Virus record (IMG/VR): IMGVR_UViG_2529292873_000017
Origin: a virus
Lineage: Duplodnaviria > Heunggongvirae > Uroviricota > Caudoviricetes
Direction: 5' to 3' (one strand)
Length of the DNA: 13,542 nucleotides
Position 1 is the stretch's first letter, and each line of letters starts with the position of its first letter. The notes under the pieces were generated by a model that was not told the DNA's origin, did no database searches, and was given only the letters and a program-made list of their open reading frames with translations. Shown piece after piece: positions 2,271 to 13,196 of this stretch. The position numbers and the translations under genes are program-made.

Positions 2271-3863
2271 TGGTTCAGGCTGTTTCGTTTCTGGCTCGTT
2301 TTGTAACGCATTTGGACGTTCTGTTCCGTTTCTTGCTGGTTCTGGTTCACAGAATCGCGGGTTTCAATCCCCTTCACCCATTTCGGATCATTCGGGTCGC
2401 TAATCCCTTCAACAAATTCACCACGTGATGCAGCAAGCAACTTATCGGCGTCAGGCTGGCTGATATTGGCTGCCTGCATAATTTTGTTTACTTCGTCAGC
2501 GGTAACTTTTACCGGCTCTGGTTGTTCGAATCTTCAGCGGTATCTACATTTTGCGGTAAGCCCGTGTATGTGCCATTTTTTCGGGCAAAATATTCTTCTT
2601 TTGTGATTTCAGTGGCCCGGCAGCCAGCGCCTTATCCAGACCAGAAAGTTTGTTTGCGCGACCGTATTTTTCGCCATCCTTGTCGGTGAAGAGGAAGTAG
2701 AACGGCCCCTCACGCTCTACAGATGGTTCGACTTCCACTTTGCATTCGGTTTTTTCGTTGTCCGGAATTGCCGTTTCCACTGCATCAGTTTCTGGTACTG
2801 GCGACGAGAGAGTGTCAGTTGCGCTCTGATTTGTTCCTTCATCTTCAAACACGCCCTTTGTCGTCAGGTATTCAGTATATTTGTTCAGTGCACAGGGATC
2901 TTTGTGAATATCGATCGGACGTTCGCGAACAAGGCCAAAAATAGTCTGACGGTCATAGCCAAGTGCTTCGGGCTGTTTGCGCATTGATGCTGAGATACGC
3001 TTCCAGTCTTCGCGATCCTTGTCGATAACCTCATTTGTCGCCCAGCGATGGATGGTACCGTCAATGTTTCCTGCATCCACATCACCGGGCCAGAGGGCGC
3101 AGGCCAGTTCGTCATCCAGTGTTTTCCATGTCTGCTTATATTCGCGGCGAATGGCAACAGTGACAGCCCCGGTTTTTTCAGCAGCGTTTTCAGTGTCTGT
3201 TGGTTGACTCTGGCGCGGGCGAGATCAACAACAGACGTGTATTTTCCGGTTTCCTTGCGTTCACCTTCGCGACGTTTTTTCCAGATGCGCATCTCTGCCT
3301 GAATTTCAGGCCATTTAGCGCCAGGCTCACATTTATGCTTAACCCACCCGATGGCATGCAGTTTAAGTTCAGGATACATGGCGTTAACTTCTGGCATTTT
3401 CATCAACGCTTCAACGATATGTCCGCCGAATGTTGCCATGTCTTCCTGTAGTAATTCCTGTGCGCTAATCACCATATCAACGGTGATGTTTTCGCATGTG
3501 TCGAACTTAACCATGACAGCGTTCTGTACTTCAGGGGACAGCTTGTCAAAAGTGACGTTCATCGGATCGGATTCAGTCTCGACCGGTACAAAGGAAGCTG
3601 ACTCCTCATCCCAGCGGTTTTCCTGCATATATTCGCATCCCAGGAATCGAGGGCAGGGCGGGGTATGCCGGGTTTATCCTCGCAGACAATAAATTTATAA
3701 GCGCAGTCCTGAGCTGCCGGGAATTGCTCCAGAAATTGCCAGTGAAATTTTGCGCGTGCGCGACGCTCATCACCGGCTTCAATGGCAGTGGCTACAGCAC
3801 AGCGCCTTCTTCCTTTATTGCCTGTTCGTCAGGAATAGCGGCGCAAATAAAGACTTTACTCAT
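2189..3863 (-). pseudogene. Frame-disrupted early-left region upstream of the exonuclease domain: protein-like segments in at least four frames that overlap each other
   Basis: Minus-strand ORFs 3863-3792, ~3840-3560, 3628-2885, 3235/3080-2544 and 2479-2189 overlap by 80-350 nt in different frames. Each translates to non-repetitive protein-like sequence. A 7-T run sits at 2571-2577. Confidence 0.55.
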
Positions 3864-4506: not shown

Positions 4507-4560
4507 GGGCGGCAGAGCAGTTCACGGAGTAAAACTGATACCGCCAAACGTCACCAGAAA
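4507..4560 (-). ncRNA. dicF: DicF small regulatory RNA (Hfq-dependent, targets ftsZ mRNA)
   Basis: Minus-strand sequence TTTCTGGTGACGTTTGGCGGTATCAGTTTTACTCCGTGAACTGCTCTGCCGCCC followed by TTTTT matches my recollection of the 53-nt DicF, with a possible 1-nt difference. Lies directly upstream of dicB. Confidence 0.85.
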
Positions 4561-10720: not shown

Positions 10721-11479
10721 ATGAGGAACATAATGGCAGGTTTTTTAATATTCCTGTCTTCTGCTGCTTATGCTGATATCAATCTGTATGGTCCTGGTGG
10801 CCCGCATACAGCCTTGCTTGATGCAGCCAAACTTTATGCCGAAAAAACAGGTATTATAGTGAACGTTCATTACGGCCCACAGAACAAATGGAATGAAGAT
10901 GCCAAAAAAAATGCAGATATCTTGTTTGGCGCATCAGAACAATCTGCTCTGGCTATCATTCGGGACCATAAAGACAGCTTCAGTGAAAAAGATATTCAGC
11001 CTCTTTATCTGCGAAAAAGTATTTTACTGGTAAAGAAAGGTAATCCTAAAAATATCCGGAGTATTGACGACCTGACCAGACCTGGGATTGGCGTAATTGT
11101 TAATGATGGTGGTGGTACCAGTAATACATCAGGCACTGGCGTCTGGGAAGATATTGCCGGACGTAAAGGGAATATAGAAACTGTCGCCGCAATCCGAAAA
11201 AATATTATTTTATATGCGCCCAATAGCGGAACTGCACGTAAGGCTCTTGAGAATCAGCCTGGAGCAGATGTCTGGATAACCTGGGCTGACTGGGCAGCCA
11301 GTAATCCAGAAATTGGTGATGTCGTGGAAATAGCGCCAGACTACGTGATATGGCGTGATATGAACATTACAGTACGTCAGGATGCAAATGATGAAACCCG
11401 TCGATTTGCAGAATGGCTACAAACCGATGAAGCGGCGCCTGCATTCAAAAAATATGGCTGGACCAGGAAAGGCACTTGA
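10721..11479 (+). CDS. Orphan periplasmic substrate-binding protein, ModA/oxyanion-binding-like, 252 aa with signal peptide
   Basis: SD AAAAGGAG 6 nt upstream of the ATG. N-terminal signal peptide MRNIMAGFLIFLSSAAYA. Loose resemblance to ModA, including the C-terminal AAPAFKKYGW versus ModA AAEIFKRYGF. AT-rich; no permease or ATPase gene adjacent. Confidence 0.65.
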   Translation: MRNIMAGFLIFLSSAAYADINLYGPGGPHTALLDAAKLYAEKTGIIVNVHYGPQNKWNEDAKKNADILFGASEQSALAIIRDHKDSFSEKDIQPLYLRKSILLVKKGNPKNIRSIDDLTRPGIGVIVNDGGGTSNTSGTGVWEDIAGRKGNIETVAAIRKNIILYAPNSGTARKALENQPGADVWITWADWAASNPEIGDVVEIAPDYVIWRDMNITVRQDANDETRRFAEWLQTDEAAPAFKKYGWTRKGT

Positions 11480-11485
11480 CATCCT

Positions 11486-11510
11486 CGTCCTTCAGGACGT
11501 GGATTCTTTT
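11486..11510 (+). terminator. Putative rho-independent terminator after the binding-protein gene
   Basis: Hairpin CGTCC-ttca-GGACG followed by TGGATTCTTTTT, a few nt after the stop codon. The stem is short. Confidence 0.4.
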
Positions 11511-11598
11511 TCCGGATGCCGCGCCAGCGGCATGTAGGGGCAGCTCACAAAACGGAAAAAATTGTACGCTAAGCCTCGCCAGGTGAACTGAATTCATT

Positions 11599-11622
11599 CC
11601 GATATGGGAATTCCCATATCGG
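11599..11622. repeat. Perfect 24-bp palindrome CCGATATGGGAATTCCCATATCGG
   Basis: Read directly from the sequence. Centred on GAATTC, ~190 bp upstream of the hok-like start. Confidence 0.6.
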
Positions 11623-11814
11623 GCGAAAACGGTTTGCTGTAACGGCAGAGTTAAGTAGGATTGCTGCGGGTGCTTGAGGCTATCTGCCTCGGGCATGAAC
11701 ACCAACGGCAGATAGATAAAAGCCCCACCCGACTATAAATCGAAGTGAGGCCCCTATATGCTCGTCACATATAGATTGCCTCTTACGGACCGAAAGGTCA
11801 AGGAGAAGCAGGCT

Positions 11815-11970
11815 ATGAAGCAGCAAAAGGCGATGTTAATCGCCCTGATCGTCATCTGTTTAACCGTCATAGTGACGGCACTGGTAACGAGGAAAGACCT
11901 CTGCGAGGTACGAATCCGAACCGGCCAGACGGAGGTCGCTGTCTTCACAGCTTACGAACCTGAGGAGTAA
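11815..11970 (+). CDS. hokD: Hok/Gef-family type I toxin (HokD/RelF-like), 51 aa
   Basis: Protein MKQQKAMLIALIVICLTVIVTALVTRKDLCEVRIRTGQTEVAVFTAYEPEE matches Hok-family toxins and my recollection of HokD/RelF. AAGGAG 9 nt upstream. An in-frame upstream ATG at 11758 would add 19 residues. Confidence 0.8.
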   Translation: MKQQKAMLIALIVICLTVIVTALVTRKDLCEVRIRTGQTEVAVFTAYEPEE

Positions 11971-12038
11971 GAGACCAGGCGGGGGAGAAATCCCTCGCCA
12001 CCTCTGATGTGTCAGGCATCCTCAACGCACCCGCACTT

Positions 12039-12066
12039 AACCCGCTTCGGCGGGTTTTTGTTTTTA
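12039..12066 (+). terminator. Rho-independent terminator at the 3' end of the hok transcript
   Basis: AACCCGC-ttcg-GCGGGTT hairpin followed by TTTTTGTTTTTATTTT. Confidence 0.75.
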
Positions 12067-12190
12067 TTTTCAACGCGTTTGAAGTTCCGGACGGCGCCGG
12101 AATAGAATCAAAAATACTTAAGTAGCGCGCAGGGAGAAGAGGGATGGACCCCGAACAGGGGAGTGCTATTTATCTGGAAGGATTCTGTTG

Positions 12191-12448
12191 ATGAGAATCG
12201 AAGAATTACGTGAAATTTTTAGTGAAGATGGCCTCTATACTGTGCGCGTTGAGAAGGGCGCTATTGTCAGCCACTGCCGTATTAAATGTTTACAGTCTCA
12301 ACAAAGGAAGAGTGGAGCTGCGTTAATTCATTTTGTGGATGGGCTTGTGACGGATGGTTTTATTTTGCGTGCAAATGAATTTGTCACATCGTTGCCGTCT
12401 CTGAAAGAAGCTGGGATTAAGGCTGGTTTTTCTGCTTTTGAAGATTAG
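12191..12448 (+). CDS. Hypothetical small protein, 85 aa (position of rem in Qin-type prophages)
   Basis: ATG with GGAAGGA upstream; a TTG one codon earlier is an alternative start. No motif recognised. Confidence 0.5.
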   Translation: MRIEELREIFSEDGLYTVRVEKGAIVSHCRIKCLQSQQRKSGAALIHFVDGLVTDGFILRANEFVTSLPSLKEAGIKAGFSAFED

Positions 12449-12797: not shown

Positions 12798-13196
12798 GTG
12801 CGGGTATTACTTCGACCTGTTCCGGTACCGGAACTTGGGTTGGTGGTCCTTAAACCAGGCCGTGAATCCATGCAGGTATTCCATAACCCTCGAGTGCTTG
12901 TGGAGCCGGAGCCGAAAAGCATGCGCGGTCTGCCGTCCGGCATCGTACCTGCCGTTCACCAGCCGCTGGCGGAAGATAAATCACTACTGCCATTTTTCAG
13001 CGATGAGCGGGTGATCCGTGCTGCGGGTGGCGCTGGTGCACTGTCTGACTGGTTATTACGTCACGTGAAATCCTGCCAGTGGCCTCATGGTGATTATCAT
13101 CACAGCGAAACCGTCATTCACCGTTACGGTACCGGCGCGATGGTGTTGTGCTGGCACTGCGACAACCAGCTGCGGACCAGACATCCGAATCACTGA
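12798..13196 (+). CDS. Hypothetical protein with Cys/His-rich C-terminus (CQWPHGDYHH...CWHCDN), 132 aa; possibly the N-terminal part of a longer gene
   Basis: GTG start with GGAGGT 5 nt upstream. A downstream frame overlaps its end and is open from ~13087, suggesting a frameshift or overlapping genes. Confidence 0.45.
   Translation: MRVLLRPVPVPELGLVVLKPGRESMQVFHNPRVLVEPEPKSMRGLPSGIVPAVHQPLAEDKSLLPFFSDERVIRAAGGAGALSDWLLRHVKSCQWPHGDYHHSETVIHRYGTGAMVLCWHCDNQLRTRHPNH

Follow-up and report, generated by a model that had tools for sequence, protein, structure and literature searches.

A probable complete hok/mok/sok cassette in a lambdoid prophage at ompW, and a neighbouring palindrome of the kind found in KilA-N genes

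The locus raises the question of how a hokD-like toxin gene is controlled when relBE does not lie in front of it. A preliminary description of the window, by which we mean the whole analysed stretch of 13,542 nucleotides of phage DNA, had taken the architecture upstream of the toxin gene to be unusual, with an in-frame ATG replacing mok, no Sok-like gene evident, a 9-bp-stem hairpin and a 24-bp palindrome in the leader, and the control of the gene left unclear. Comparison with related loci leads to a plainer answer. The region is very probably a hok/mok/sok type I toxin-antitoxin cassette with all its parts, belonging to the hokC(gef)/hokD/hokW subfamily and carried by a lambdoid prophage at ompW, and the locus is of an ordinary, already-known kind.

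Prophage setting and parts of the cassette

The toxin is a small membrane toxin of the Hok/Gef family, since the Pfam model HOK_GEF (PF01848) matches it with 82.9 bits against a cut-off of 22 and all 51 of its 51 residues are identical to K-12 HokD (relF, in the Qin prophage). Matching RefSeq records label the gene hokD. The preliminary description was right in calling the locus hokD-like, its toxin ORF intact and its terminator present, and also in stating that relBE is absent from the window; the gene upstream of the cassette is paa (10721-11479 in the matching RefSeq record), which ends in a terminator hairpin of its own (Table 1).

The host element is a Qin-like lambdoid prophage integrated at ompW, with the cassette in its early-right/nin region. 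In strain E2865, the gene order runs from ompW through integrase, excisionase, exonuclease and dicB to cI/cro-like genes, ydaT, replication genes, DUF1627 and a fimbrial pseudogene, followed by paa, hokD, two small ORFs, DUF968, rusA and Q. GenBank records of 'PPompW' prophages contain a 100% identical copy of the 641-nt stretch that served as our query (11480-12120), where the toxin gene is named gef and described as a 'phage maintenance protein'. The order around the toxin gene in these records is paa-hokD-rem-like-DUF968-rusA-Q, and DicF and dicB are also found in the prophage. An Rfam search places DicF inside the window at 4507-4559.

At an identity of 99% or above, the 641-nt query is found in 567 RefSeq records of E. 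coli, mostly chromosomes of O26, O103, O111, O121 and O145 STEC, and among the matches listed the identity is 100% in 30 of 30. This spread indicates stable carriage of the intact toxin gene. The RefSeq annotation of the locus consists of the hokD CDS alone and leaves out mok and sok, a gap that matters for annotation.

Table 1. Positions of the cassette elements and of neighbouring features in the window
Feature	Position	Strand	Description
paa terminator hairpin	11486-11499	+	5-bp stem and T-rich tail; ends the paa moron, outside the hok cassette
KilA-N gene vestige, 33 nt	11589-11621	-	reads S-D-M-G-I-P-I-S-E-stop-I-Q
Perfect 24-bp palindrome CCGATATGGGAATTCCCATATCGG	11599-11622	both	centre ~57.5 nt upstream of the putative hok start
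hok promoter (putative)	11634-11661	+	-35 TTGCTG (11634-11639), 16-nt spacer, -10 TAGGAT (11656-11661); from alignment
Full-length hok mRNA, ~400 nt	11668-12066	+	putative 5' end; 3' end at the terminator
tac element	11668-11679	+	predicted partner is fbi in the full-length RNA, ucb in the RNA shortened at its 3' end; from folds and inverted repeats I7/I8
9-bp-stem hairpin	11680-11715	+	11680-11688 with 11707-11715; core of the conserved tac/ucb 5' stem-loop of hok mRNAs
Sok antisense RNA gene	~11766 to 11712	-	ends transferred from annotated K-12 sokC
ucb (anti-SD), AAGCCCC	11720-11726	+	predicted to pair with the mok SD (closed form) and with tac (open form)
mok Shine-Dalgarno GAGG	11747-11750	+	7 nt 5' of the mok ATG; read from the sequence
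Sok-target hairpin	11754-11774	+	7-bp stem, loop CUCGUCA, mok AUG in the stem; from the truncated-RNA fold
mok frame, 70 codons	11758-11970	+	same frame as hok; from the ORF list
sok promoter (putative)	11773-11801	-	-35 TTGACC (11801-11796), 17-nt spacer, -10 CAATCT (11778-11773); from family comparison
hok toxin ORF, 51 aa	11815-11970	+	SD AGGAGA at 11801-11806; intact
fbi element CCUCAACGCACCC	12020-12032	+	predicted partner of GGGUGCUUGAGG in the 5' tac; one base is bulged
Intrinsic terminator	12039-12066	+	7-bp stem (12039-12056) with 5 G-C pairs, loop TTCG, then T-run

The ATG seen upstream of hok is in frame with it, as the preliminary description had noted, but rather than replacing mok it is the ATG from which mok itself starts, in the same way as mokC of K-12. 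The frame has its own Shine-Dalgarno sequence, starts upstream of hok and overlaps it, and its product would be Hok with an N-terminal extension. The TGAGGC motif around the mok Shine-Dalgarno sequence is kept across the family alignment. When the mok-to-hok offsets were counted in 56 unique related units, 49 had an offset of 57 nt and one an offset of 54 nt, both in frame, and the remaining six had offsets of 56 or 58 nt, which are out of frame. The mok frame tracks the spacer of the sok promoter (17 nt in 48 in-frame units, 18 nt in 6 out-of-frame units), because the sok promoter sits within the mok-hok interval. Phage Rac (MN652886) provides an annotated example of an out-of-frame mok. With 50 of the 56 units in frame, and with the K-12 annotation giving mokC a stop codon in common with hokC and a start 57 nt upstream, the in-frame mok is evidently what the hokC(gef)/hokD/hokW subfamily normally has.

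The Rfam family RF01794 (sok) matches positions 11668-11817 with 103.9 bits against a cut-off of 59, covering model positions 1-157 of 157. The model describes the hok leader on the hok strand, starting at 11668 with GGGUGCUUGA, and its first helix is the 9-bp hairpin. On the opposite strand, a cis-encoded Sok gene with a promoter and a terminator, overlapping the mok initiation region, is present at the sequence level. The RNA would consist of a single-stranded 5' tail and one hairpin followed by UUUU, with a predicted fold of -24.8 kcal/mol (z = -4.9) that has the same shape as SokC, and it is complementary to the mok Shine-Dalgarno sequence and start codon. The promoter types of sok are conserved over 32 unique sequences, most prophage relatives, the hokW type included, carrying TTGCCT-17-TAACCT. 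The Sok body is 21 nt shorter here than in the hokW type, a short form common to at least 11 viral contigs.

With these matches, the absence of an evident Sok-like gene can no longer be claimed, and a recognisable sok promoter together with an antisense RNA in the leader is what the preliminary description itself had named as counting against its view. That view, a novel architecture that lacks Sok and has an in-frame leader ORF in place of mok, drew on the upstream ATG being in frame and on the minus strand showing no textbook promoter. Given the Rfam sok match, the Sok homologue with promoter and terminator, and an in-frame mok that is both the annotated state of mokC and the subfamily majority, we regard it as extremely improbable.

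A scan for consensus promoters detected neither the hok nor the sok promoter, and its sole site (12079-12108) lies downstream of the cassette, so both promoters were assigned through homology. Both deviate from the consensus, the sok -10 element CAATCT lacking the first T and the hok -10 element reading TAGGAT, where most relatives have TAGAAT and K-12 hokC has TATAAT. These deviations, and the failure of the scan, would fit a cassette that is complete but silent or non-killing, a relic carried as a passenger and kept as harmless, as with the inactivated hok loci of K-12; some chromosomal hok loci tested earlier were also reported to lack post-segregational killing (bioRxiv 10.1101/2025.08.07.668861). 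We nevertheless consider a silent relic unlikely. All elements are intact in a stretch that is carried so widely at near or full identity, and K-12 sokC, an annotated sRNA gene, has the same promoter type (TTGACC-17-CACTCT, against the general form TTGACC-17-CAxTCT that also fits the locus here). Furthermore, the close relative hokW-sokW is active (PMC8621323), and decay is visible in other units of the same data set, with truncated Hok or units losing homology, which argues that the copy in the window has not decayed.

The predicted RNA switch

The long-range pairing of tac with fbi, and the alternative pairings of ucb and dcb, are both predicted for the hok mRNA. The full-length RNA (11668-12064) folds with a minimum free energy of -166.3 kcal/mol (z = -7.7 against shuffles), with tac paired to CCUCAA-CGCACCC of fbi and GCCCC of ucb paired to the mok Shine-Dalgarno sequence. 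When the RNA is folded with its fbi end removed (11668-12012), the prediction has tac joined to ucb, enclosing the 9-bp hairpin, and the mok Shine-Dalgarno sequence paired with GCCUC (dcb, 11778-11782) around the 7-bp Sok-target hairpin. The flanking SD/dcb stem joins 11747-11751 with 11778-11782, and the loop CUCGUCA of the enclosed hairpin faces the 5' tail of Sok. The Sok-target helix matches a helix of the Rfam consensus, while its stem letters differ. The closed and open forms, together with the element names tac, fbi, ucb and dcb, have been described for the hok mRNA of plasmid R1 (PMC9841398).

The 9-bp-stem hairpin singled out in the preliminary description is real and corresponds to the conserved tac/ucb stem-loop; it is paired in the Rfam consensus, present in both folds and kept in 59 aligned units. 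The fbi element is kept in nearly all aligned units, and since the related loci were gathered through an exact leader motif, tac and fbi are almost invariant among them.

These folds suggest a course of events like that of other hok systems. The weak promoter-like site would give rise to an hok mRNA of about 400 nt, in which the 5' tac is held by the 3' fbi and ucb hides the mok Shine-Dalgarno sequence. Once the fbi end is gone, tac would pair with ucb and the mok Shine-Dalgarno sequence with dcb, so that the Sok target is displayed. By analogy with the R1 paradigm and with hokW-sokW, slow 3' trimming would be the activating step, and a short-lived Sok would bind the mok initiation region and block translation of mok, and hence of hok, with the paired RNAs probably being decayed by RNase III. 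If Sok synthesis ends, because the element is lost or the prophage is induced, Hok would be made and would damage the inner membrane. The role of the cassette may lie in prophage maintenance, in helping lysis as for hokW, or in defence.

For the gef/hokD/hokW subfamily it is normal to have mok in frame, a short Sok and a fold that joins tac to fbi, and what had been described as an unusual architecture consists of standard parts. Nor does the absence of relBE leave the control obscure, as the locus has its own hok/sok machinery in the form of a homologous leader, mok and Sok.

The upstream palindrome and its relatives in KilA-N genes

The 24-bp palindrome is perfect, as first described, but it appears to be a remnant of a neighbouring gene and not a leader element. 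It lies outside the cassette, for homology with the hokW-type, Rac-type and hokC loci begins only immediately past its 3' side, at about 11625. Even with 3 mismatches allowed, the window has no other match to the palindrome, 200 shuffles gave 0 matches, and a search of 26 kb of the prophage at the same threshold gave no second copy.

On the minus strand, the palindrome lies within a 33-nt stretch that matches the KilA-N gene of one related locus (L067) at 32 of 33 nucleotides, 10 of the 11 nucleotides beyond the palindrome being identical and all of them on one side. The Leu codon of the gene, which reads S-D-M-G-I-P-I-S-E-L-I-Q, has become a stop codon here, so that 33 nt with an internal stop are found in place of a KilA-N ORF. 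The match comes from a short-word local search, which was used because a global alignment of the window with the KilA-N-hok intergenic region of another locus (L388) was spurious. E. coli AR_0067 and two IMG/VR loci (L050 and L128) have an intact KilA-N gene directly upstream of hok, in divergent orientation. The one-sided match, together with the divergent intact genes of the relatives, points to a gene vestige, and the palindrome is best read as a surviving piece of a divergent KilA-N gene, with no part in the control of the cassette as far as the comparison goes. A subset of prophages, O104:H4 providing an example, have the palindrome in the same place without paa, their copies having lost the outer pair or a single nucleotide.

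Two other roles were rejected. A terminator is excluded by the lack of a T-run on either strand, and one of a pair of recombination sites by the lack of a partner in the 26 kb of prophage. Rfam gave no family over the palindrome in the window or in five other loci, and a preprint on Pas-sRNA offered no link to the palindrome position.

A different possibility is that the palindrome is a working operator, where a dimeric phage protein, for example KilA-N, bound at about -57.5 would couple hok to the state of the phage, a layer of control absent from R1. The palindrome is indeed perfect and non-random, it lies 11 nt upstream of the hok -35 element, and no fewer than 78 viral contigs and some 760 E. 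coli genomes have the same arrangement; moreover, its family is kept at the nucleotide level in KilA-N genes, and clusters of such palindromes exist outside them. However, the fixed spacing reflects shared ancestry and is no independent evidence, the hokW-type, Rac-type and hokC loci have the same promoter without the palindrome, and close variants carry the 1-nt deletion or the lost outer pair. The one-sided extension of the homology marks a gene fragment, the prophage has a single copy, and just 139 of 5426 E. coli genomes have a KilA-N gene of this type. An operator is for these reasons quite unlikely, and we retain the reading of a KilA-N gene remnant.

The KilA-N genes themselves show a pattern that is robust and unexplained, and it is the sole lead from this locus that may be new. 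The 20-mer core of the palindrome has at least 120 exact matches in viral contigs, 78 of them upstream of hok, about 27 within KilA-N genes and the rest in other contexts, and the copies in KilA-N genes have very different flanks and G+C content. A codon-neutral scan for the peptide DMGIPIS retrieved almost solely the palindrome or a version of it with one central mismatch. In eight Pfam-confirmed KilA-N genes with 29-86% protein identity, invariant residues outside the motif use 2-5 codons, whereas inside the motif Asp is GAT, Pro is CCC and Ile is ATA in 8 of 8.

To leave the palindrome site itself unselected, 60 unique genes were gathered by the anchor QGTWVHP. At least 8 of 9 complementary pairs are found in 45 of these 60 genes, compared with 7.5% under synonymous resampling. 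The arms vary among genes while their complementarity stays, as in GATATGGG/CCCATATC, GATATCGG/CCGATATC and GAAACGGG/CCCGTTTC, and likewise in GAAACCGG/CCGGTTTC and GTTGCGGG/CCCGCAAC. The third base of codon 2 and the third base of the Pro codon form a G-C pair in 31 sequences and a C-G pair in 16 and are unpaired in 0, with a covariation of 0.301 against 0.127 in shuffled data (reached by 0 of 500) and at most 0.094 for slid partners. Such strictly complementary changes in the arms, including paired synonymous changes at third positions, point toward a constraint on the nucleic acid beyond that on the peptide alone. G-U pairs are almost absent from the arms, which may hint at a constraint at the DNA level over one at the RNA level, although the coding limits weaken this sign. 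Two trivial sources were discarded: the codon-neutral scans and the synonymous resampling rule out a chance product of the DMGIPIS peptide, and other GIP sites in the same loci lack such symmetry, so that it is no general property of G-I-P tripeptides.

The distribution of the motif is wide. A search of one genome per species (596 Gb) gave 108 exact matches, where by our own estimate about 2 are expected by chance, in Cyanobacteria, Chloroflexi, Proteobacteria, Spirochaetes, Bacteroidota, Verrucomicrobia, Patescibacteria and others. KilA-N genes hold about half of the 108. Outside these genes, GGAATTCC-centred palindromes with different arms occur in clusters, for example in the loci L218 (~2560-2720), L287 and L010, and a Pfam search of the ORFs flanking the L218 array gave no informative match. 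The orphan copies and arrays suggest that the palindrome can act, or at least persist, alone. A possible lead is offered by the homologous regions of baculoviruses, which are arrays of palindromes with a central EcoRI site near bro genes, and the Bro-N domain of these genes is related to KilA-N.

A literature search on the palindrome sequence, its variants, and KilA-N in combination with palindromes found no description. Our reading, put forward tentatively and with less than even confidence, is that a GGAATTCC-centred palindrome of 20-28 bp, which encodes [D/E]-x-G-I-P-x-[S/T] in KilA-N genes of phages and bacteria from many phyla, is an element under nucleic-acid constraint that is to our knowledge undescribed, the copy in the window being a stray. 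Its role may be that of a site for binding, recombination or cleavage, or that of a hairpin. The neutral alternative is that template switching self-corrects quasi-palindromes and that the pattern has no function. If the element is functional, it would offer a first handle on what the common but poorly understood KilA-N DNA-binding domain of phages recognises, or else it may reveal the way in which modules of phage genes are cut and rejoined.

Comparison with named hok systems

The hok/mok/sok system of plasmid R1 has the same set of elements as the locus here and the same predicted closed and open forms (tac/fbi, ucb/SD, tac/ucb, SD/dcb). Its sequence is distant, its mok is out of frame with hok, and R1 is a plasmid on which a role in post-segregational killing has been demonstrated.

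The hokW-sokW pair of the Stx2 prophage Sp5 is much closer, being about 86% identical at the DNA level along 80% of the cassette, and has been established as a toxin-antitoxin pair by experiment, where sokW counteracts HokW; the HokW toxin, a close relative of the toxin in the window, is 44% identical to R1 Hok (PMC8621323). We infer that hokW corresponds to the locus in Stx2 converting phage I (L006). As here, hokW lies in a lambdoid prophage, has an in-frame 70-codon mok and shares the hok promoter region from about 11625. The hokW type differs in its sok promoter, in its longer Sok body, where an extra GCGTC...GACGC hairpin is flanked by a direct repeat of TTAACATTA, in the C-terminus of Hok and in the lack of the upstream palindrome.

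The K-12 hokC/mokC/sokC locus has the same leader, GGGUGCUUGAGGCU..., and an in-frame mokC with the same offset as here, and in both loci Sok is a short RNA of 55-59 nt with one hairpin. Its Hok differs at several residues, and it lies at the dnaJ-nhaA site instead of in a prophage. In hokC, IS186 sits about 20 nt downstream of the ORF, and the 3' region, where the window has fbi, does not align, whereas fbi and the terminator are intact in the window.

The alignment to hok/sok and hokD loci that the preliminary description had proposed shows the leader to be homologous to hokC/mokC/sokC, whereas homology to K-12 hokD starts only at 11801, 14 nt 5' of the hok ATG. Beyond this point the two loci differ by 2 mismatches in 256 nt and have the Shine-Dalgarno sequence, the 3' UTR, fbi and the terminator in common, and the downstream synteny of rem, DUF968/ydfU and then Q is also the same. 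Upstream of the break, K-12 carries the 3' end of relE and lacks the hok promoter, tac, ucb, the mok start, Sok and most of the sok promoter, whereas the window keeps the whole leader and does not have the relBE-hokD layout, in which hokD lies directly behind relE and has neither a leader nor mok nor sok. The break at 11801 with relE upstream of it argues that K-12 lost the upstream part. In this event, a sequence ending in relBE would have taken the place of the promoter, leader, mok start and sok. By this alignment, the intact form is the one in the window. The K-12 hokD gene is truncated and derived, an exception to bear in mind wherever it serves as the reference.

Neighbouring genes, prophage type and annotation

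The paa gene, which encodes an AcfC-family adhesin, is a self-contained moron lying immediately upstream of the hok cassette, whereas related prophages without paa carry a 34-aa hydrophobic open reading frame (ORF) in its place. On the other side of the cassette, the sigma-70-like site is located just past the hok terminator and upstream of a rem-like ORF (12188-12448). Compared with strain E2865, the frameshift in the DUF968 gene leads to a stop at 13194-13196, and by its sequence the gene is probably a pseudogene in the window strain. The DicF small RNA encoded in the window and the dicB gene that RefSeq lists in the corresponding E2865 record (L001) together identify the prophage as Qin-like. 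In the RefSeq records matching window positions 11480-12120 (e.g., NZ_AP018808.1), the hokD coding sequence is the sole annotation; mok and the sok RNA are unannotated, despite a score for the region well over the Rfam threshold.

Positions of features in the window and in comparison loci
Feature	Record	Position	Strand	Details
DicF sRNA	Window	4507-4559	-	Rfam RF00039, 73.7 bits
paa	Window	10721-11479	+	Pfam SBP_bac_11; terminator 11486-11499
GGAATTCC-centred palindrome	Window	11599-11622		
Sigma-70-like site	Window	12079-12108	+	TTGAAG-18-TAGAAT; sole consensus match in region
DUF968 gene	Window	12798-13196, on to 13542		Frameshift near 13180
Palindrome-terminator module	L186	6001-6064		about 65 nt
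Palindrome cluster	L218	about 2560-2720		
Palindrome cluster	L287	1492-1730		
Palindrome cluster	L010	5717-6073		
Palindrome cluster	L190	2614-2960		

Palindromes inside and outside KilA-N genes

The GGAATTCC-centred palindrome is preserved inside KilA-N genes from many phyla (comparison loci L039, L050, L067, L103, L189-L294, and others), where it encodes the peptide [D/E]xGIPx[S/T]. It is upheld via complementary changes, including synonymous ones: in 45 of 60 KilA-N genes obtained by codon-neutral sampling, 8 or more of the 9 pairs are complementary, against 7.5% expected. We found no published description of this KilA-N gene palindrome.

Outside recognisable KilA-N genes, four loci carry groups of two to five palindromes, with a spacing of 37-335 nt, which share the GGAATTCC centre and differ in their arms; the arm types match those in KilA-N genes.

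Phage-like contigs, both lambdoid and from other enterobacterial groups, repeatedly carry a conserved palindrome module of about 65 nt at the 3' end of one gene or another (L134, L141, L171, L179, L186, and similar loci). The module is ordered as CTACCATACAAGC, the palindrome, and a strong intrinsic terminator (GGCCTCTTCGGAGGCCTTTTT). The L186 copy, which has the same map position as the window palindrome, is flanked by accessory genes, downstream of replication genes, and by the ybcN/ninE genes.

The sok promoter and the Sok body

The sok promoter (window 11773-11801 and related loci) sits between the start codons of mok and hok, and therefore 1-nt indels in its spacer also change the mok frame. 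In alignment A4, a 17-nt spacer accompanies an in-frame mok (48 of the aligned hok loci), and an 18-nt spacer accompanies an out-of-frame mok (6 loci).

The Sok body of the hokW-type loci (L006 and L004) is 21 nt longer than that of the window at 11727-11740 (alignment A2, columns 172-200). The extra 21 nt form a small GCGTC...GACGC hairpin flanked by the direct repeat TTAACATTA, and, from the aligned sequences, the difference from the hokW type has the look of a polymorphism in the antitoxin stem that arose by insertion or by duplication.
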